A stretch of 43,438 nt of DNA from a virus (Duplodnaviria > Heunggongvirae > Uroviricota > Caudoviricetes): positions 1-43,438 of the IMG/VR virus record IMGVR_UViG_2703718829_000008. The stretch is one strand, 5' to 3'. The translations under genes were made by a program, and so were the position numbers. Of the stretch, positions 2,854-14,526 are shown piece after piece; the stretch's first letter is position 1; each line of letters begins with the position of its first letter. The notes under the pieces are model-generated. The model did no database searches, was not told the DNA's origin, and saw only the letters and a program-made list of their open reading frames with translations.

Positions 2854-3492
2854 TTAATTCCTATAAAATGTGCCATCATTAAACGGGTAGGCGTCAGATG
2901 AAAAACCGAAATAAGGACTAATAATTTTTCGAATATTTACCTGAACACCACTAGGAACTGGCATTACTTCATAATTTGTGAGAATAGATTCCTCGTATGG
3001 TGCAAGTTCAAACTCGAATGTTATTCCAATGGTCATATCTCGATAATTCACACAGTATGCCCTTCCTCTTTGAAAAAATAATATCTTTAAAAACTTGTTG
3101 ATTTCTGGAATCGTAGCAATACTTATGTTCGTAAACGCTTTGCAAAATATGAGTGTTCTGTAAGCCTCGTCACTCAATCTAACATTTGTTGTCTCCTGTG
3201 CTCCTCCAAAAAAAGGAGAGTTGTTGAACGGAGCGGGGTAATTTGGTTCTGCATTATCAGCTTCACTGAATCCGAAGGAATTGGTCTCTATAGGTGAGTT
3301 AATATAGCGACTTATCCCTACTATTTTCCCCCACATATCCAGGCCGAATGTATCACAGGTAGTCAAATCCCATACTTTTTTAATAAACTCATCAGTGAAA
3401 TCATCAAGGCTAATTGCCTGATTAAAGGTATCAATGATGGATAGTAATTTTTTGCTTGCAGAGTACTGGGTAAGAATTGTGTCCTCCCACAT
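2854..3492 (-). CDS. Tail/baseplate-associated protein
   Basis: 212 aa ORF tightly packed between tail fibre and baseplate J-like gene. Confidence 0.35.
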   Translation of the reverse strand: MWEDTILTQYSASKKLLSIIDTFNQAISLDDFTDEFIKKVWDLTTCDTFGLDMWGKIVGISRYINSPIETNSFGFSEADNAEPNYPAPFNNSPFFGGAQETTNVRLSDEAYRTLIFCKAFTNISIATIPEINKFLKILFFQRGRAYCVNYRDMTIGITFEFELAPYEESILTNYEVMPVPSGVQVNIRKIISPYFGFSSDAYPFNDGTFYRN

Positions 3493-3502
3493 ACATTTCC
3501 CC

Positions 3503-4732
3503 CTACGATAATGTAACAGTGATATCTGATTCCTGAATGGTTGGAACCTGGTCTATGCCCATAGTCACAGCCGGTCCGTATAGTGAACCATCGAGAGAAA
3601 CTTCAAGAGACAAAATTCCAACTGTATCAGGAGATATTGAAATAACAGGGGCATAGTATTTACCAGCATTTATCGTCGAACCAATTCGTGCCTTTCCAAT
3701 ACCCTCATATCCTCCATTGAACACAGTGACAATCATTTCCTTTACTTGTTTAGTAATATCACTTGGGGGATTTAGTGAAGCATCGACATTTACCTTAAAG
3801 TAAACCCGCGTAGGTGATGCCTTTTGCCATTGCATTACATAAGATGGATATGGCGGCATGTAATTAACGTTATCGTAAACAGTGAACGTTGTATTACCAT
3901 TCATATTGGCCCCGGGGTTATAAGTATTGAATATTGACTCAGCAACATCCGTATCAGCCCCGCCATAAACACAAATATAAACAGAATGCGCAAGAATCGG
4001 GAAATTCGTTGTTCCTTTATTTACTGTTTCTGCAGTTCTGTTTGACCATACGTAAGCATCAAGCACACCATCAGTCGCAAGTAACGCGGCTAATGTAGAT
4101 GCGTCCTGATTTCGACTGTTTCTGGCAACTGATTGTCTCCGGCGAGTTTCAAAGGCGATCCGTGATTCAACATCAACACCAACGACTCCAGGGCTAGTAT
4201 TATTTACAGCATCCCACCCGGAAACGGCTCGATAAATCTGGTTCAGTGAACCTGCGGCACACGGAATCGGCCCGGTTGTTGTGTTGACAAACTGCACATC
4301 AACAGAGCCTGATGAGGGTATTACAGCATTATCAATTGACTGATATATATACCCGCTCGTATCCACAGCGGTACTCCCTGCTGGTATTGTTGTTCCAACC
4401 TGACCAATGCATGTTGCTGTAACAACTGTCCCCTGAGCAGCGATCCGCTCCATAAAGTAAATCCGACCAATCCCGTCCTGGAATCTGCCGGTTGAAAAGT
4501 CAGGGTTAATTTGATTAAACAAACAAAGAAGCTTGTCGTATTCCTGAGCGATAATTTCAGTGTCAGACTGGGCGATCTGCCCTTGCGGTGAACTCAGTGA
4601 CTGACTTGCGCCACCGCCAAGGGCCGTTGACATGTCTGTAAGTCTTCCCGCCAATACATCTGCTATATCGGGGACTGAAAGACCGTTTTCAGTGATGGTT
4701 ACATCAGGAACAGCCGTATTTAATGTCGTCAT
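3503..4732 (-). CDS. Baseplate J-like protein
   Basis: 409 aa, position and size typical of baseplate J; 4-nt overlap with upstream gene. Confidence 0.45.
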   Translation of the reverse strand: MTTLNTAVPDVTITENGLSVPDIADVLAGRLTDMSTALGGGASQSLSSPQGQIAQSDTEIIAQEYDKLLCLFNQINPDFSTGRFQDGIGRIYFMERIAAQGTVVTATCIGQVGTTIPAGSTAVDTSGYIYQSIDNAVIPSSGSVDVQFVNTTTGPIPCAAGSLNQIYRAVSGWDAVNNTSPGVVGVDVESRIAFETRRRQSVARNSRNQDASTLAALLATDGVLDAYVWSNRTAETVNKGTTNFPILAHSVYICVYGGADTDVAESIFNTYNPGANMNGNTTFTVYDNVNYMPPYPSYVMQWQKASPTRVYFKVNVDASLNPPSDITKQVKEMIVTVFNGGYEGIGKARIGSTINAGKYYAPVISISPDTVGILSLEVSLDGSLYGPAVTMGIDQVPTIQESDITVTLS

Positions 4733-5088
4733 AAGGTGGCCTGTGCAATATTACCATTGATATCTGTAACGCGGATTGTCCCGCGAGTTGTGCGTGTATT
4801 CTTGTCAAAGAAAACTGACGCCAGAGCATCCTCAACAACGGGTAATTTGAGTGCTTCAGCCTGCATTTTCTGAGCAATAAAACCAGGAGATGGTCGCCTG
4901 CCAAGAACTTCTGCCTTCCATGGGATCCCAAGTGTATTGTCGTAATAACACTCTCCTGAAAACACCAGGCATGCACTGGCGACATCCTGAGCAACAGAAT
5001 ATGATTCTTCTGCGATCGCCAGATTGCCATTTCCGTCAAGCGTCAAGTCCCACGTAGAAGTGTCCAGCTGCATAGTTCTGTATGTCAT
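4729..5088 (-). CDS. Baseplate W/gp25-like protein
   Basis: 119 aa, synteny between spike-like and J-like genes. Confidence 0.35.
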   Translation of the reverse strand: MTYRTMQLDTSTWDLTLDGNGNLAIAEESYSVAQDVASACLVFSGECYYDNTLGIPWKAEVLGRRPSPGFIAQKMQAEALKLPVVEDALASVFFDKNTRTTRGTIRVTDINGNIAQATL

Positions 5089-5777
5089 GTCGGTTTATCC
5101 GTTGCATTGGAATTTATTGTTGACCCACCACTTTGTATTCCTGAAACAGAATGTTTGTGATTGTTATAGTTGTCCCTTAAATTTTTAACAGTAGATGACT
5201 GTGAACTTGCGTTATCCTGAATATCACCGCTAACTTTAAGTAAAGGAGTATTCATGTTGACTCCATCAGGAGCATCAATATTTAACGATGAACATTTAAT
5301 ATTTAGTGGGTTAGGCGTGGTTATGTTTATTGCACCATCAGCAAATTCAATGAATTGAGTAGGTGCAATATTTAATACCCCACCAAGATAAATTGCATCA
5401 GATTTACTGTGTCGCCTTTTGCTTCCAGGTACTGATTCTTTACGATTTTTTCTTACCAGTGATGTGTCTTTGTCGCATATCGCAATCAGACCAATATCAC
5501 CCGCCACAGGGTCCATAATTACAGCGCTGTTTCCTCTCTGCAACCGCCATACGGGAAGATCATATAAAACCGAGTTAGAAATCATTTTTCCTGTACGGTC
5601 TGTTCTGGTTAGTAAAGGAAGAGCGTCAACAACTAAATCCGGTGCTTTCCCCCTGACTTCCTGAACTCTCGCTAACTCAATGAAGAAATATCCAGACATC
5701 ATCATCTCAAAAATATATTCCTGAGATTGAGCCTCACTTACCTGAGCAGGCGTTGGAGTAAATAGTTGCTTATCCAT
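5085..5777 (-). CDS. Baseplate spike (gpV-like) protein
   Basis: Start chosen at internal Met (MDKQLFTP) giving an 8-nt overlap with the upstream gene; the track ORF extends to 5870. Confidence 0.35.
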   Translation of the reverse strand: MDKQLFTPTPAQVSEAQSQEYIFEMMMSGYFFIELARVQEVRGKAPDLVVDALPLLTRTDRTGKMISNSVLYDLPVWRLQRGNSAVIMDPVAGDIGLIAICDKDTSLVRKNRKESVPGSKRRHSKSDAIYLGGVLNIAPTQFIEFADGAINITTPNPLNIKCSSLNIDAPDGVNMNTPLLKVSGDIQDNASSQSSTVKNLRDNYNNHKHSVSGIQSGGSTINSNATDKPT

Positions 5778-7818: not shown

Positions 7819-8631
7819 TTAGGCTGCGGTAGAAACATTAACTAGATTTCTCAATACTTCAACTCCTTTTGAGTTGTAGCGGAATGCTTCCACCTGTTTG
7901 CTGGAATGCGCCGATTTATCCAGGAAGAACTTCCCGTACTGCTCAGTTTTGAGGTTGTTTGCGTTAGCAATGCGACCAATCTTGTTGGCCGTTACTCCAA
8001 GCTGCTCTGCAACCTCCCCTGCTGAGTAGTAATGCTCTTCTATTGCCGGAAGGGGTATTGCATTAAAACCAACGATCGGGTTGATTATGCTTGCGGCCGC
8101 AGTCTGCTTTGCTTCCGGCGCAAGATTTGGCATCAAATCGAACAGATTGGTAACAGCTTCAACCGTCATTTTCAATGTTCGCGCTTGACGATACTCAACA
8201 AGTCCACTCGCTGATTTACCGCTTTTAATGTGCGCTTCTTGCATACTTTCAAGTTGGTCTACCAGTGAGCGGCGAACGGCTTTTGACTCGCGAGCGGCAA
8301 CTCGAAGGGCTTGCTTAATTGACATAACAACTTTTTCAGAACTTGTCTTGTTTGATTTTTGAACTACGAAAATTTCGTAGTGCTCACCTTCAAGTTCATC
8401 CTTAATGCGTGCAATAAAGTCGTTATTGCGGACTTCTTTTTCCCCGCACTGTCTACGAGCATGATTGACCATCTCTAACAGGTACTGGCTATCAATGGGT
8501 TTATCCGTGACAACGGATCCGATGTTTGCTACATTCTTAAAAGTCATTAGGCATTCCTTATGTGGTAGTAAGGGTGTGACATAGGCCGCCAGCAGCACAC
8601 TGGCGGTTTTTTTCACCGCCAGATGCGTCAT
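7819..8631 (-). CDS. Putative regulatory/antirepressor-associated protein
   Basis: 270 aa; start overlaps ant-like stop (TAATG); C-terminal HTH-like segment. Confidence 0.35.
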   Translation of the reverse strand: MTHLAVKKTASVLLAAYVTPLLPHKECLMTFKNVANIGSVVTDKPIDSQYLLEMVNHARRQCGEKEVRNNDFIARIKDELEGEHYEIFVVQKSNKTSSEKVVMSIKQALRVAARESKAVRRSLVDQLESMQEAHIKSGKSASGLVEYRQARTLKMTVEAVTNLFDLMPNLAPEAKQTAAASIINPIVGFNAIPLPAIEEHYYSAGEVAEQLGVTANKIGRIANANNLKTEQYGKFFLDKSAHSSKQVEAFRYNSKGVEVLRNLVNVSTAA

Positions 8632-9554
8632 TAATACAGATGAACAGAAGGCGGCAATTCTTTATTCTTAAGCCTTATCCATGCGGAAAGATTTGTTGGT
8701 CCGTCTGGCTCATTGATATCAACATCTCGTGTGTGGTTGATTAAAACGTCTCTCGCCGTTCCGATAACATACGAGAACTCATGGCCGTAGTCGTAGCACC
8801 TGCCAGAATAGTTTGATTGAATGTGCTTTAGCGCCGGATACAGTTCGCGGAATAATGCCTGTGAGCGGTTGGCATAATCCCATAACCATACAAGGCTGTT
8901 TGCTTCTTTTGCAGAAAGCTCGTTGGTTTTCTTCTCTTGTTTGCCGATGAACTCACCTTCAAGTGGAACTCGAGCTGCAAGTGACAGTGCTTCGGCAAAC
9001 TGCTCCTCACTGATTTCTTTGTATGAACACCCAAAATGAGATTTCAGTGACGACCACATGGTGATCATCGCCTTAGCCTGTTTTTCTTTTGGCAGAGACT
9101 GACCTCGACTCATGACGAGTTGTTTAATGGCTTCCTGCTGTTCAGTGGTGATTTTCCCCGGCAACGCCTTTTTAGCTTTGCGTGGATTAACCACATGGCC
9201 TTTAGTCCAGTACTCGTAGAGCACATCGTCACACTCTTCCTGATACTGGATTACCTTGTCGCGGATTTCAGGACGGACTTTGTTAGGACTGATGCTGTTC
9301 AACCAAGCTGCCAATTTTCGTAAAGCCATACAAATCATGGCTTGCACCCCACCGGCAGAAGGTATGGTGATTTCCACCATACCCTTCGAGAAGCGTTGAG
9401 AAATCTTCTTATGTTGAGATTTCCAATCTAGCCCCATTCCCTCAACGATAGGTTTCATTGGGGTGTACGGTTCGCCGTTGTGATTGACAACATAAAGCTC
9501 TGCGCCGTGGAATGGTACATTGATAGTTGATACCGCTGTTGCTATACTTTTCAT
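8631..9554 (-). CDS. Antirepressor-like protein (AntA-type N-terminal domain)
   Basis: 307 aa; lies downstream of an Arc-like gene and divergent from an Mnt-like gene, as in P22 immI. Confidence 0.55.
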   Translation of the reverse strand: MKSIATAVSTINVPFHGAELYVVNHNGEPYTPMKPIVEGMGLDWKSQHKKISQRFSKGMVEITIPSAGGVQAMICMALRKLAAWLNSISPNKVRPEIRDKVIQYQEECDDVLYEYWTKGHVVNPRKAKKALPGKITTEQQEAIKQLVMSRGQSLPKEKQAKAMITMWSSLKSHFGCSYKEISEEQFAEALSLAARVPLEGEFIGKQEKKTNELSAKEANSLVWLWDYANRSQALFRELYPALKHIQSNYSGRCYDYGHEFSYVIGTARDVLINHTRDVDINEPDGPTNLSAWIRLKNKELPPSVHLY

Positions 9555-9620
9555 GTCAGTTTTTCCTCAATACTTACTGGCGATTTAAGCCCTAGATACT
9601 CGCAATATCTGGGGCTTTAC

Positions 9621-9767
9621 TCATTCTGGACAAACAATCCCGTCCTTAGCTACCGACTCCTTAAGCCTCCTCAACACCTCATTGCTGAATGACCGATCAT
9701 CCTTTTTCGCTGACTGCTCCAAAGCTTTTTCGAGCCATTCTGGCATCCTTAACGTTTTTACTTTCAT
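9621..9767 (-). CDS. Arc-like ribbon-helix-helix repressor (48 aa, below track cutoff)
   Basis: Hand translation MKVKTLRMPEWLEKALEQSAKKDDRSFSNEVLRRLKESVAKDGIVCPE; SD AGGAGC 4 nt upstream of ATG. Confidence 0.5.
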   Translation of the reverse strand: MKVKTLRMPEWLEKALEQSAKKDDRSFSNEVLRRLKESVAKDGIVCPE

Positions 9768-9780
9768 TTTCGCTCCTTTG

Positions 9781-9836
9781 GTATGCGGTACGCATACATA
9801 GTATGTAGGTACGCATTGATAGTCAATAGATACCTA
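9781..9836. promoter_or_regulatory. Divergent promoter/operator region between arc-like and mnt-like genes
   Basis: Three palindromes: GTATGC-n5-GCATAC (9781-9797), TACATA-G-TATGTA (9795-9807), ATTGA-TAG-TCAAT (9815-9827). Confidence 0.4.
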
Positions 9837-9872
9837 CATATCCTGTGGTAAAAAATTATTCAGGATACGCTG

Positions 9873-10115
9873 ATGTCTGAACGCAGGTACAAGAACCCAC
9901 AAGTTAATCTTCGACTTCCTGTGGAGATAAAGGATCGCCTAACCGCGTTAGCTGAGGCGAATGGCAGATCTTTAAATGCAGAAATGGTTGCAGCTCTAAG
10001 TGCGTGGGCAGAAGAAAATAAACATGTTCACTCACTTAGCCTTTCTTCCTTAACCGAAAGATTAATAGCTCTTGAGAGAGAGGTTGCAGCCCTTAAAGAA
10101 GCAAACATCAAGTAA
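9873..10115 (+). CDS. Mnt/Arc-family ribbon-helix-helix repressor
   Basis: 80 aa; 'LTALAEANGRSLNAEMV' resembles P22 Mnt 'AEANGRSMNSEL'; divergent from arc/ant. Confidence 0.6.
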   Translation: MSERRYKNPQVNLRLPVEIKDRLTALAEANGRSLNAEMVAALSAWAEENKHVHSLSLSSLTERLIALEREVAALKEANIK

Positions 10116-10138: not shown

Positions 10139-10606
10139 ATGGCATGTCTTAGCAAGGAAGAAAATGAAATCATCAATGTAGAATTTAAAAAAGCATCAGC
10201 AGATGAGTTGCTGATAATCAAGAAATTAATTATCGATGTTAAGAACCATAAAGGGCTATACCAAGATGTCGTAAAGAATGGCGCAGACCTCTACAGTTCA
10301 AAACTTGACATCATGAGAGAAACCGGCTTAGAGGAGATGACCTCCGGTATTCTTGCGAGAACGCTTTGGGGTATCACGCGACCAGAAAAAGAGAACACAA
10401 GACACCTAAGGGTCGGGATTAATGAAGCTGAGTGGTGCTTTGTGGAATGCATATGTAGACACCCCGCTCACCGCCTTCTTCATGGAAAGAAATACGCCAT
10501 CCGCAAAGGAATGAAGATTGGTTTTTTCAAACACATCCACCCTGGACAACTTGTAGGGTGTGGATGTTTATCTAGCCCCATAATTCCAGGATTAAAAAAC
10601 ACTTGA
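10139..10606 (+). CDS. Hypothetical protein co-transcribed with mnt-like repressor
   Basis: 155 aa, AT-rich, SD GAGG upstream, 24 bp after mnt-like stop. Confidence 0.4.
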   Translation: MACLSKEENEIINVEFKKASADELLIIKKLIIDVKNHKGLYQDVVKNGADLYSSKLDIMRETGLEEMTSGILARTLWGITRPEKENTRHLRVGINEAEWCFVECICRHPAHRLLHGKKYAIRKGMKIGFFKHIHPGQLVGCGCLSSPIIPGLKNT

Positions 10607-10965
10607 TAGCGGCCGCAAAGCAGATTGCCACGAAGTTGTTTGCAAAAATACTCCATGACAAGTTAGGACTTGAATAAGTGCTCATGCCGTGCTGATAGCT
10701 CTACTAGCAACTTCATCGCTTCTACCGCGTCTGCCGAGGTTGATTTAGGTGACGCAACAATGGACCTGAGTGTGCTCTATAAACTACACAGGGATAGAGA
10801 ATATGCCAAATTTAGCTTTATCACGGCGGCTAAGTCTGTTTCATCATGGTTTGCGAGTTTGTCTGCTTCTCCTGGGGTATACCCACTCGCAACCAATCGT
10901 GCGTGCATCATCTCTTTGTAAGAGTGTTCAATTGCTTTCATGATAATAACCTATTGGTAATAACT

Positions 10966-10995
10966 TAAAAAAACCCACCTGACGGTGGGTTTTAT
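10966..10995. terminator. Bidirectional rho-independent terminator
   Basis: A7-CCCACC-TGAC-GGTGGG-T tract between convergent genes. Confidence 0.55.
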
Positions 10996-11414
10996 TAGTG
11001 CTTGTATAGGTTGAACTCTCTATCAAGCCATATAACAAAAAATGTCGATCCAAGACGATAACCAACCATGGCTTTCAAATCATCAAATCTAAAAGCCAAG
11101 AAATGATCTACGTCTTCCGTTATATGACTGGGGATACCTGCTTTAATTGCACACCTTGCAATCTTCTCAAATCCAAGCTTATGCCTACCTTGCTGCTTAA
11201 TCTCTGCCCATGTTAGTTGACTTAATCTGTATAATTTATCAGCTAAGCCAGCTTTCTCATCTTTTTGGCATTTCGTTATGCAGTGAGAGCTTTGGATGTA
11301 ACAGAATGAAAATTTCGGTTTCTTTTGATCTGAATTCCCCCCTGACTGCGGCCCTAACTTTAACTTACCTGTAGATTCAGCAGGGGGGATAATCCTTTTA
11401 GATTTTCTTGCCAT
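10995..11414 (-). CDS. Putative toxin partner of Panacea-domain protein
   Basis: Start taken at MARKSKR, 4 nt after upstream stop; basic N-terminal region; C-terminus (VGYRLGSTFFVIWLDREFNLYKH) reminiscent of RelE/YoeB-type strands. Confidence 0.35.
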   Translation of the reverse strand: MARKSKRIIPPAESTGKLKLGPQSGGNSDQKKPKFSFCYIQSSHCITKCQKDEKAGLADKLYRLSQLTWAEIKQQGRHKLGFEKIARCAIKAGIPSHITEDVDHFLAFRFDDLKAMVGYRLGSTFFVIWLDREFNLYKH

Positions 11415-11418
11415 CTCG

Positions 11419-11868
11419 TTAGTTAATCCGAGTTGCAAAGTACTCTGCCATCTCCTTAGAGCTAATTTCAGAACCACCAACACCCTCAATATAGTTTGAT
11501 CTCCATGGTGACTCTTCGTGTGTCATGTTCCTCAGTTTCCAGGCAGAAAATTGCCCAAAAACATCCCAGACTTCTTCTAATAGCTCTAACTGTTCTTCGC
11601 TGAATTTTTCAGCATCAAAAGACTCTGGAGAAGGGATAGCGCCATTACCATATTGTTTATAACGGCGATAAAGCTCAGGAACAACAGGGCCATGCATCCA
11701 GGCTTCCATCTTATTCTGAAAAAGAGGCTCGCCAAGCAACGCCAATGAAAAACCCTGAGCATAGTAAACAAGCTTTTGTAATTTTAAATTAGAGATTGTG
11801 TCACCGCTATCCTCGTCACACCGCGACAGGAAGTAGTCGGCGACATCAAAACAAGTAAGCATGAACAC
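11419..11868 (-). CDS. Panacea-domain (DUF4065, SocA/GepA-like) protein, putative antitoxin
   Basis: 149 aa; 'NLKLQKLVYYAQGFSLALLGEPLF...EAWMHGPVVPELY' matches the DUF4065 pattern as I recall it. Confidence 0.6.
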   Translation of the reverse strand: MFMLTCFDVADYFLSRCDEDSGDTISNLKLQKLVYYAQGFSLALLGEPLFQNKMEAWMHGPVVPELYRRYKQYGNGAIPSPESFDAEKFSEEQLELLEEVWDVFGQFSAWKLRNMTHEESPWRSNYIEGVGGSEISSKEMAEYFATRIN

Positions 11869-12286
11869 ACCTCCATCTTGATAGCCACAGCTAAGTATCC
11901 AACTATGTCAAATGTCATTTAATACTATAACAAAGCTATCAGCAATCCTTCGGAGGCTAACTTACAACCACTTTAGCGACATGTTTAAACCATTACGTTT
12001 CACATTTACTGCATTTTCGCTGAAGTTACCTATAAGGTAATGTCACATTTCCTGCAAGTTTCATGCAATGTTGAAAAGTGAGCTATTCACTTTTCTATGA
12101 CACCAAACACCAAAAATAGCACTTTTTGCTAAATCATTCGTCCAAGTTGTGGATGGTTTGTCGTTGACACGTTTTCACACACCACTCCACCAATAAAGTA
12201 TCATCTGCTATCCTACGCAAAACTAACTGTTGCGTGTTTTTTCTTCATTTAATGGGTAATTGAAATAACCAATACGGATCTCTAAA

Positions 12287-12688
12287 ATGAACATCTTAAA
12301 ATCTACCATCTCAATCCTCTTTCTGCTAAGCCCTTCCGTGTGCTTCTCGTCTGGCGGCCTTACTTCACATCAAGTTTTAGTGGATTGCAACAGAGCTTCA
12401 TCGTCCTTGGTTAGCTCCTATGAAAAGGACGTTCCATTGCAGGAGTCCAAAAGGATGGACCTCATACAGACAATATCCCGCGTATGCCAAGGTGCATACC
12501 AAAACGCTTACGATGGCATGCAGTATGAGGACATTGAAAGAGAGGTTTTATCAAGCGCCAAAAAACAAAAGAAAAATCTTCAAGGAGAAAGCAAAAAAAA
12601 TACCGAGAACAGAACCGGGCTAGTTCTTTCCGCCATTCAGGTAGGGTATTACATATACCATAATGGCGGTCTTGATAATAAAAAATAA
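12287..12688 (+). CDS. Secreted hypothetical protein (signal peptide)
   Basis: 133 aa; hydrophobic N-terminus ISILFLLSPSVCFSSGG; AT-rich; preceded by a 418-bp AT-rich intergenic region. Confidence 0.4.
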   Translation: MNILKSTISILFLLSPSVCFSSGGLTSHQVLVDCNRASSSLVSSYEKDVPLQESKRMDLIQTISRVCQGAYQNAYDGMQYEDIEREVLSSAKKQKKNLQGESKKNTENRTGLVLSAIQVGYYIYHNGGLDNKK

Positions 12689-12708: not shown

Positions 12709-14526
12709 TTAAGGTGTTACACCACTAGAAAATGCCGCGTTTGTTGATACCCGGCTAACTTGCTGATTGACACTTCTGGTAAGAGCATCAACTGTTGTCG
12801 GGTTACTGTTAACAACTACCGTGCCAATAGTTGTACTGCTGCTACGGCTGTTGTCAATTTTTGATGTTGTCTGGCTTGGTGTTGAGGCGATGCGTTGCAG
12901 CTGCTGATAGTAAGCCAACGTCTCGTTTTCTTTTGCATTAAGAGCGGCGCGAATCTTTGGCACATATTCTCGCGTCTCTTTCGGTAAGGTGTTCCAGTAT
13001 TTGGATGATGGTGAATCAAACCCGGTACTGGATATATATTTTAACTTTTTGTCTACATTGCCCATCCCCCAGTTGTAAGCCATCAGCGCATGATTAACAT
13101 TGCCTTTATAGTGCTTTAGCAAATCCCTCATGAACCTTTCAGAAGCAGCGCGAGATTTTACCTCATCAAGACGCTCATCAATCCCATCACCGACCTTTAA
13201 CCCGTACGCTATGGCAGTATCCTTCATGAACTGATACGGACCAACAGCACCTTTCGGGCTGTAAAGTTTTTTACCACCACTCGATTCCACCTCACGAATG
13301 GCATCAAGAAGAGAATCCATGCTTACAGGCTTTACTCCGTCAGGGAGAGGGATATCTGGCTGAATGTTATTGCCATAAATCTCATCTCCCCTACGCCCAA
13401 AATCGGTGTCAAACCCCATGCTGCGCATGGTATCTCCAAGTTCACGCTTAGAGTAATCAAAAGATCCTTTAGCTGCACCCTCAATGTTTTCCCTGTCATT
13501 GTAGAGGTACAAACCATATGCTATTAACCCAGCCAACCATGGAGGAAGGGCGCCGCCTGTAAGTTTGCTTCCTACATATGCTGCTGCCAATAGCTTCAGA
13601 GCCTCTTCCGCGCCACCAACTGCCTTTGTGAATTGCTTCGTCATATTCCCGGCGTCATTGAAAAAGCCAATGATGTCGCCATGATGTTTCTCAATCCAGG
13701 AACCAAAAGCCTTCATTCCGTCAATAACGTCAGGAGCGAATGCCACGGCTAAATTTTGCTTTAATCGGGAAAACTCTGAATCAAGTTGCCCAAGAGTGGC
13801 AGCAACCTTCTCCTGCTCTTTTACCTGCTGTGCTGTAATACGGGATTTCTTTGTTTCTGAATCGACAAGCTGCTTAAGTTCCCCTGATTTTATTTTAGCG
13901 GCATCTGTCGGATCGAACCCTGCGGCAGCCATCACCTGCATCAGGTTTTCTTGAGAATGAGTCTTGCCATAGCGAGAAAACTCAGCAAGAGCCTTGTTTG
14001 GGTCGCCGAGCTTATTGATATCTAATCCGGTACGAGCGCCAAGAACCAGCAAATTTTGGGCAGCGCCAGTAAGCCCTCCCATAACAGTTGGATCGGCAAT
14101 ATTTGCCAAAGCCATTCTGGCATTCCCAGAAGATGAAATGAACGAGTCACCGTTAAGACCAGCCTGGCGAAATCCCCGCTGAACACCAAACATCTTATTA
14201 ACATCAGAACCGAAAAACTTGGCCTGTTGACTGGCTCTCACGATTTCGTTGGCAGTAGATGTAAAAAGTTGCTTGATTCCATACAACCCGGCGCCAATTC
14301 CCAAAAATCCAGCGGCTGCGGTTGTCACGTTGCGGAAAGCTGAAACAGCGGTTTTACCGAACCTCTCCGTTTCCTGCCGCTGTTTTTCAAGTTCCTTTAG
14401 CCTTTCCTTCTCAGCCCTGGAAAGATCTTTGTTTAATTTACTAACTTCATCTTTTACTTTCCGTTTTCCATTCAGGAATTCATCGGCCTTAATTGTGACC
14501 TTGTAGGCCAACTCATTGATAATCAT
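12709..14526 (-). CDS. Tail tape measure protein with lytic transglycosylase (SLT) domain
   Basis: 605 aa; coiled-coil N-terminus; 'EVESSGGKKLYSPKGAVGPYQFMKDTAIAYG' SLT-like motif; follows frameshifted chaperone pair. Confidence 0.55.
   Translation of the reverse strand: MIINELAYKVTIKADEFLNGKRKVKDEVSKLNKDLSRAEKERLKELEKQRQETERFGKTAVSAFRNVTTAAAGFLGIGAGLYGIKQLFTSTANEIVRASQQAKFFGSDVNKMFGVQRGFRQAGLNGDSFISSSGNARMALANIADPTVMGGLTGAAQNLLVLGARTGLDINKLGDPNKALAEFSRYGKTHSQENLMQVMAAAGFDPTDAAKIKSGELKQLVDSETKKSRITAQQVKEQEKVAATLGQLDSEFSRLKQNLAVAFAPDVIDGMKAFGSWIEKHHGDIIGFFNDAGNMTKQFTKAVGGAEEALKLLAAAYVGSKLTGGALPPWLAGLIAYGLYLYNDRENIEGAAKGSFDYSKRELGDTMRSMGFDTDFGRRGDEIYGNNIQPDIPLPDGVKPVSMDSLLDAIREVESSGGKKLYSPKGAVGPYQFMKDTAIAYGLKVGDGIDERLDEVKSRAASERFMRDLLKHYKGNVNHALMAYNWGMGNVDKKLKYISSTGFDSPSSKYWNTLPKETREYVPKIRAALNAKENETLAYYQQLQRIASTPSQTTSKIDNSRSSSTTIGTVVVNSNPTTVDALTRSVNQQVSRVSTNAAFSSGVTP

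Follow-up and report, generated by a model that had tools for sequence, protein, structure and literature searches.

Predicted pairs of a Panacea-domain protein (PanA) and a partner (PanT) were catalogued by Kurata et al. 2022 (PNAS, PMC8832971), and the pair of Salmonella phage vB_SemP_Emek, YP_006560565.1 (PanA) and YP_006560566.1 (partner), is among them. In Dataset S1 and Table S1 of that paper, the Emek PanA is designated 'noNTD', the gene order is antitoxin-first, and the pair is assigned to cluster pT1/T1. T1 comprises about 217 of the 1,268 predicted PanAT pairs and ranks among the two largest clusters; its predicted action, 'mRNase', comes from HHpred (PMC8832971). [quoted passage not shown] Toxicity was seen for one T1 member only, from Clostridium cadaveris, and it was not rescued by its PanA (PMC8832971). 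The same authors note that non-toxicity in E. coli leaves toxicity in the original host possible. Panacea was proposed as a sensor of TA-activating cues by Ernits et al. 2023; the Emek and E. coli accessions are absent from the accessible part of the supplements of that paper. In the literature searched, no later toxicity test and no phage-challenge test of any T1 pair was found.

Three further groups of systems are relevant for comparison. SocAB of Caulobacter is a type VI TA system, and SocA is the founding Panacea protein. The ribosome-dependent mRNA interferases RelE, YoeB, HigB, and YafQ (RelE/ParE superfamily, BECR fold) are paired with RelB, YefM, HigA, or DinJ as antitoxins. In the Menshen antiphage system, the C-terminal (PB-BECR1) domain of NsnC is regarded as the effector; it is assigned to the BECR superfamily and described as a YafQ-like RNase with an H-R-H triad (PMC12065111).

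The pair described here is located on the minus strand of an E. coli prophage, of which a stretch of 43,438 nt (the window) was analysed. Judged by sequence, it belongs to PanT cluster T1, and nothing in the sequence sets it apart. T22A and R66H are the only differences between its PanA and YP_006560565.1, and E71D and C88G the only ones between its partner and YP_006560566.1. The initial annotation had considered that the partner might be an undescribed one; comparison with the catalogued PanA/PanT pairs, which it had proposed as a check, recovered the Emek pair itself in PMC8832971, with two residue differences in each protein. The pair is already known from prophages of E. coli and Salmonella, and no new module is reported here.

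Organization and conservation of the two-gene unit

Both ORFs were confirmed on the minus strand when the ORFs of the window were inspected (Table 1). The upstream product had been recognized as a DUF4065/Panacea protein from its sequence alone, and this assignment is correct: it matches Pfam family PF13274 (SocA_Panacea) with an E-value of 1.9e-24 and 87.2 bits (cut-off 25.7) over model positions 1–112 of 113, and carries the motifs NLKLQKLVYYAQGFSLALLGEPLF...EAWMHGPVVPELY quoted in the initial annotation. It also matches phrog_1281 (E 3e-60). The search for a sequence-related solved structure of PanA gave none. Against the NCBIfam SocA equivalog NF047745 it reached 71.3 bits, far under the cut-off of 190, and PanA is therefore regarded as a stand-alone Panacea-domain protein and no SocA orthologue. 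SocAB was rejected as an identification on this score and on the lack of a SocB-type partner: the Panacea domain is common to SocA and PanA, but the partner is unrelated to SocB and has a predicted RelE-like fold instead.

The PanA ORF stands as first called, but its length does not. A GTG at 11868 had been taken as the start, giving 149 aa; ATG 11862, giving 147 aa, is more likely. Since a GGAGG lies 7 nt before this ATG and the protein of E. coli APEC IMT5155 is called by PGAP (NCBI) as a 'Panacea domain-containing protein' of 147 aa, the GTG start is probably two codons too long. The 139-aa partner gene follows at the distance first given, with the PanA stop codon TAA (11421–11419), a 4-nt spacer (cgag), and the partner ATG at 11414.

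Table 1. Features of the PanA-partner locus (positions in the window)
Feature	Position	Strand	Description
PanA gene	11419..11862	-	147 aa, stand-alone Panacea/DUF4065 domain protein
Partner gene	10995..11414	-	139 aa; PanT cluster T1 member, predicted RelE/YoeB-like (BECR) fold, basic disordered N-terminal tail
Intrinsic terminator	10970..10993	-	directly after partner stop codon
Whole mobile cassette	10964..12226	-	terminator, partner, PanA, and 5' leader
AT-rich non-coding leader	11869..12226	-	358 bp, conserved
Perfect 9-bp inverted repeat GAAAAGTGA-N5-TCACTTTTC	12073..12095		inside leader; candidate operator

The partner stop codon, ending at 10995, abuts a strong terminator, which was found by a terminator scan on the minus strand at 10993–10970 as the hairpin AAAACCCACCGTCAGGTGGGTTTT followed by a T-run. 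Its stem of 10 bp has five G-C pairs and closes with a 4-nt loop. Phage Emek also has it annotated as a terminator, and it is 93% conserved in the EC.P3 variant of the cassette. In the Rfam search, only sub-threshold matches were obtained, and these fell on the terminator hairpin. The initial annotation described the terminator as bidirectional. The minus-strand orientation passed the scan; the plus-strand orientation, with the weaker T-tail TTTTATTAG, did not, and termination in both directions is plausible.

PanA and its partner form a two-gene unit that is conserved and has an AT-rich leader and a terminator of its own. Among the IMG/VR loci with a relative of the partner, a PanA gene is directly upstream on the same strand in 57 of 60, and when all fetched loci are counted, in 72 of 76, with gaps between −38 and +24 nt, most often +4 or +8. 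Of the four loci that deviate, two are truncated remnants, one has a divergent arrangement, and one carries a deletion (L021). The divergence of PanA and that of the partner are correlated (Spearman 0.68–0.75, 41 unique pairs). As in the definition used by Kurata et al., the partner lies less than 100 nt away and the two-gene unit is conserved across species.

As a self-contained unit, the pair is found again in P22-like, P2-like, siphovirus-like, and other prophages as well as at a chromosomal site, and its hosts range from Enterobacterales to Aeromonas and Solidesulfovibrio. It is placed between tail genes S and V in a P2-like Aeromonas prophage, adjoins a P22-type portal gene in Solidesulfovibrio, is next to an integrase in one locus, and stands between housekeeping genes at the chromosomal site on a 217-kb metagenome contig. 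In prophages of Morganella and Providencia and on a siphovirus-like contig, it is often found beside Arc/Ant genes. Within E. coli, 85 of 5,426 complete genomes carry the pair.

Two loci have unusual arrangements. In L021, a deletion fused a tail-assembly-like ORF, which we take to be lambda gpI-like, in frame to about the last 24 residues of PanA, and the partner is intact. Either the partner does no harm there when the Panacea domain is missing, or the C-terminal helix that is left of PanA is sufficient. In L060, PanA is divergent from its partner, and a second PanA with a distant partner-like gene follows. The L021 fusion, together with the divergence profile against the EC.P3 variant, suggested the idea that the C-terminal tail of PanA is the partner-specific, co-varying part of the protein. 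This idea was rejected as unsupported, as the correlation for the tail is 0.53 versus 0.68–0.75 for the Panacea core (41 unique pairs).

The mobile cassette and its leader

The structural genes of the window are about 98–99% identical to those of prophages carried by about 20 complete E. coli genomes, and nothing alike was found among the phages of the phage collection searched. The pair is flanked by the gene at 12709–14526, whose product is a lytic tail protein containing a lytic transglycosylase (SLT) domain, and by an Mnt/Arc/anti-repressor module at 7819–10115. With the P22-like phages Emek and phiv205-1, the window shares only the block 10964–12226, at 99% identity. The corresponding block of EC.P3 and E212 is 83% identical and aligns in pieces, and the flanks of the cassette are not alignable to any of these four. 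In E. coli TW10590, the backbone of the window is present with a P63C-domain gene at the cassette site instead. Because this block is the only one shared with Emek and phiv205-1, and because of the gene swap in TW10590, the pair is regarded as part of a mobile cargo cassette of 1.26 kb that occupies a variable locus.

In Emek and in the P22-like prophage of APEC IMT5155, the cassette is inserted between a DNA-transfer gene and mnt/arc/ant, a position like that of the cargo (moron) locus of P22-like phages between the late structural genes and immI. This is the position of sieA in P22. The genes of the cassette are unrelated to sieA, and it is the position that would suggest a function in exclusion.

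The AT-rich region upstream of the pair, which had been recognized initially, has a GC content of 0.35–0.375 across 11869–12286. Its conserved part, the leader, is 87–100% identical to that of the EC.P3/E212-type variant, while the amino acid identity is only 71% for PanA and 52% for the partner. The leader is present in 85 of the 5,426 E. coli genomes, matching the count of the pair, and is never annotated. A block of 60 nt around the inverted repeat of the leader (Table 1) is 100% identical in the EC.P3 variant; a 14-nt direct repeat is also present, and blocks of the leader are common to the leader of a siphovirus-borne cassette. No Rfam family and no conserved small ORF were found in the leader, and its RNA fold is not significantly stable (z-score −1.65). 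A sigma-70 scan of the minus strand revealed no consensus promoter for the pair, and the candidates picked manually are all weak.

Family and predicted fold of the partner protein

The partner has no match in Pfam at E ≤ 1, and in NCBIfam it matches only MAG6450, weakly (E 0.023) and under the cut-off. It matches PHROG 8366, a group listed as of unknown function, end to end. A profile of 36 partner homologues found no match among PDB sequences at E ≤ 10. At E ≤ 1e-3, the family of the partner has 1,539 clusters at 50% identity, and this exceeds chance by far.

An AlphaFold2 model computed from the 36-homologue alignment has a pLDDT of 86, and above 90 from residue 31 on. After a disordered tail up to about residue 30–32, it shows a strand that is followed by two helices and a sheet of four strands. 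When the model was searched with Foldseek, YoeB and HigB ranked first with a probability of about 0.9, although with weak E-values; the search against viral predicted structures (BFVD) was uninformative. Because the model is confident and these two toxins rank first, a RelE/YoeB-type (BECR) fold of the partner is supported at the fold level. The likeness of its C-terminal part, including the motif VGYRLGSTFFVIWLDREFNLYKH, to RelE/YoeB-type strands was thus well judged in the initial annotation, and so was the basic and disordered N-terminus. In the family, this tail keeps its length (median 31 residues) and its basic character (23% K+R), while its sequence varies.

Like the RelE, YoeB, HigB, and YafQ mRNA interferases, the partner is predicted to have a beta-alpha-alpha arrangement with an antiparallel sheet, and its gene follows that of the putative antitoxin. 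It differs from them by the 32-residue basic tail, an insertion of 17 residues (87–103), an extra strand, pairing with Panacea, the lack of a sequence-family match, and the reported non-toxicity. No likeness to RelE, YoeB, HigB, or YafQ was found at the sequence level in Pfam, among PDB sequences, or with hhalign, in which the 36- and 260-sequence profiles of the partner gave no alignment to single YafQ, YoeB, RelE, and HigB sequences.

In an alignment of 260 family members, which are 32–99% identical to the protein of the window, residues P33, F35, W69, G81, E83, I85, P95, R109, G118, R120, F125, D131, Y137, and H139 are conserved in at least 92% and H78 in 88%. Conservation of the polar residues E83, R109, R120, D131, Y137, and H139 argues for a maintained active site, and in the model these residues and H78 are at topologically plausible positions of a putative RNase site. 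The active site of YoeB is formed by E46, R65, H83, and Y84, and HigB has Y91 and H92 at its C-terminus. The Glu/Arg/Tyr/His set of the partner, with its C-terminal Y-x-H, recalls both toxins, and in the model E83, R109/R120, Y137, and H139 may correspond to YoeB E46, R65, H83, and Y84. This equivalence is topological only, since hhalign against the single toxin sequences gave nothing.

Residues 31–135 of the partner match positions 178–279 of 284 of the PADLOC model for NsnC (E 6.2e-6), which is the C-terminal BECR effector domain of the Menshen protein, and the partner family conserves H78, R109/R120, and H139. The N-terminal inactive-PIN domain of NsnC is absent from the partner, which has only the disordered tail of 32 residues. 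Neither NsnA (ParB-DUF262) nor NsnB (ABC ATPase) was found near the pair, where the neighbours are PanA, the Arc/Mnt/Ant homologues, and the lytic tail protein. The locus was therefore rejected as a Menshen system, as only the effector domain is common to both. [quoted passage not shown]

Possible function of the pair

The initial annotation proposed a candidate TA or defence pair. As the non-toxicity of the partner alone is a published result, with the Emek and MOD1 proteins both scored 'not toxic', this proposal is tenable only for a conditional or latent system. We give about an even chance to the reading that the PanA-PanT pair of the T1 class is a conditionally active RNase module, carried as prophage cargo for defence or maintenance. 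PanA would be translated first, and the partner, with a weak Shine-Dalgarno sequence of its own, would be translationally coupled to it across the 4-nt spacer. The partner would most likely be an endoribonuclease using E83, R109/R120, Y137, and H139, and its basic N-terminal tail may aid binding to RNA or to the ribosome. PanA would bind and gate the partner as a neutraliser and/or sensor. The activity of the partner must be conditional, because over-expression alone is reported to be harmless in E. coli; the partner might become free or active only upon a trigger, e.g., infection by a phage, or its target might be a substrate that uninfected cells lack. The prophage would benefit through exclusion of superinfecting phages by abortive infection, through its own retention, or through both.

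[quoted passage not shown] Against it are the 'not toxic' scores of the Emek partner and its E. coli twin, the toxic T1 member that was not neutralised by its PanA, the lack of sequence likeness to RelE, YoeB, HigB, and YafQ, and a sigma-70 scan that gave no promoter. The orphan partner of L021 is equally compatible with a harmless and with a gated partner.

A wider form of the conditional RNase reading is possible, although we consider it less likely than not. According to it, T1 pairs would be no growth-arrest TA systems; they would instead be RNase modules, latent and gated by a trigger, which serve temperate phages as cargo for superinfection exclusion. The partner would be harmless alone and switched on via the PanA sensor, the 'not toxic' scores would result from gating and/or from non-native N-termini of the constructs, and the leader palindrome would tie expression to Arc/Mnt-type regulators of the phage.

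A classical type II TA (addiction) system, in which the partner is a constitutive RelE-type mRNA interferase and PanA a labile antitoxin, is unlikely, although the operon layout, the coupling, and the fold would be the same as for the conditional RNase module. It requires that the published non-toxicity is an artefact of constructs with mis-annotated starts, and the accessions do give some ground for this. Dataset S1 of PMC8832971 lists gene gaps of −62 (Emek) and −20 (E. coli MOD1), which match exactly a TTG start at 11480 (161 aa) for the former and at 11438 (147 aa) for the latter. The two accessions overlap panA by 62 and 20 nt and read its 3' end out of frame, by which extensions of 22 residues (Emek, LVVLKLVLRRWQSTLQLGLTNE) and 8 residues (MOD1, QLGLTNE) are placed ahead of MARKSKR. 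From sequence comparison, ATG 11414 with a product of 139 aa is likely the true start of the partner: it is supported by the PGAP call of the 139-aa start, by M1 being aligned in 89% of the 260 family members, and by the EC.P3 variant, in which the homologous ATG is preceded by stop codons at a distance of 4 codons. Provided that the ORFs were synthesised according to the accessions, the N-termini of both non-toxic constructs were non-native. The toxic member from Clostridium cadaveris is annotated with a gap of −1 (PMC8832971). However, this comparison of starts covers three proteins only, and the extensions are added to a tail that is already disordered; the caveat is therefore a reason for a re-test and not an explanation. 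Short N-terminal additions seldom abolish RelE-type toxins. The intact orphan in L021 is also hard to square with constitutive lethality, unless the 24-residue C-terminus of PanA neutralises it.

We would also give a low chance to a role other than that of a toxin, in which the RelE-fold partner has lost or changed its activity (RNA or ribosome binding, regulation) and the pair serves in counter-defence against host toxins or in the control of lysogeny beside Arc/Mnt/Ant. The absence of toxicity in the published assay, the tolerance of an orphan partner in L021, and the repeated location beside Arc/Ant immunity modules agree with such a role, and a leader that is more conserved than the genes and contains a perfect palindrome suggests regulation tied to the phage. 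The RelE/ParE fold also hosts non-RNase functions such as that of ParE (PMC10440598). However, the E/R/R/D/Y/H set is strictly conserved in more than 250 diverse members from chromosomal and phage contexts, the partner has homology to the effector domain of a defence system, and one T1 member is toxic. The pair is also found away from immunity modules, between the P2 tail genes and at the chromosomal site. That the partner is instead a ParE-like DNA gyrase poison and no RNase is highly improbable.

As a discovery the pair counts for little, having been catalogued and tested once, and its value is that of a pointer. [quoted passage not shown] T1 makes up roughly one sixth of the predicted Panacea pairs, and its enterobacterial members are without demonstrated activity. 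The likely true starts, a defined 1.26-kb cassette with its leader, the link to the Menshen effector, and the candidate catalytic residues are grounds for a re-test. If the native form of the partner turns out to be an RNase triggered by phages, a large group of orphan Panacea partners would then count as a characterised family of prophage defence systems, and the pair would also be a test case for the hypothesis of Panacea as a sensor.

Conserved leader of the cassette

The leader of the cassette (11869-12226) is non-coding and 87-100% identical between the window cassette and the EC.P3/E212-type variant. In the same two variants the aa identity is 71% for PanA, the stand-alone Panacea protein, and 52% for its partner, so conservation of the leader is far above that of the genes downstream. 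The leader was found in 85 E. coli genomes, equal to the count for the PanA/partner pair. A perfect palindrome and a direct repeat are located within it (table).

Features in and around the cassette
Feature	Position	Strand	Remark
14-nt direct repeat	12000-12013 and 12043-12056		within leader
Perfect palindrome GAAAAGTGA-N5-TCACTTTTC	12073-12095		within leader
133-aa ORF	12287-12688	+	between cassette and lytic tail protein gene
155-aa ORF	10139-10606	+	after Mnt-like gene
Two different anti-repressor genes in tandem	7819-9554	-	phrog_1726 and phrog_245/524

Variant arrangements and annotated starts of the pair

At locus L021 (IMGVR_UViG_2639762749_000019, 3688-4423), the Panacea domain has been lost by natural deletion, and the last ~24 PanA residues (IEGVGYQVISHNELKDYFLTRIN) are joined in frame to a tail-assembly-like ORF, which we take to be lambda gpI-like. 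The partner, 143 aa long, starts 2 nt after the fused ORF. Because it stays intact after the deletion, the partner is tolerated without the Panacea domain. At L060 (IMGVR_UViG_3300008121_000004, 3462-5386), PanA and partner are divergently oriented, and a second PanA of 157 aa lies immediately downstream, overlapping a distant partner-like gene of 147 aa (E 3e-5 against the partner family profile). This arrangement represents two related pairs in tandem. At L077, on a Providencia stuartii contig (3743-4740), a 198-aa ORF directly 3' of the PanA pair overlaps a YafO-toxin-family gene, and the two look like a second toxin-type module, grouped with the pair at one prophage cargo site.

In public records the partner is annotated from TTG codons further upstream, which makes it 161 aa long in Salmonella phage Emek and 147 aa long in some E. 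coli entries. Translation from such starts (window 11414-11489) runs out of frame through the 3' end of panA; the partner predicted by PGAP in complete E. coli genomes has 139 aa. For PanA, the Emek record gives 149 aa from GTG, and PGAP 147 aa. The Emek annotations concerned are orf161 and orf149 of NC_018275.1.

Neighbouring genes and exchange of cargo

The 133-aa ORF has a signal-peptide-like N-terminal segment (MNILKSTISILFLLSPSVCFSSGG) and no PHROG match, and its sigma-70-like promoter (12260-12288) is the best in the region; it may be another cargo gene. The 155-aa ORF matches phrog_324 weakly and partially (E 1e-8, C-terminal 68 residues only). Its counterpart position holds a gene annotated as ClpP in the APEC IMT5155 prophage and two small ORFs in Emek, and it is a second variable slot, adjoining the cassette. 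The anti-repressor tandem adjoins Arc- and Mnt-like genes and forms with them an immI-like module, carried by a backbone that is not P22-like.

The sister prophage of E. coli TW10590 (NZ_CP035850.1; L078, 3247-4509) has the same backbone as the window. Since a P63C-domain protein gene and an anti-repressor remnant occupy there the position of the window's PanA cassette, cargo is exchanged at this site.
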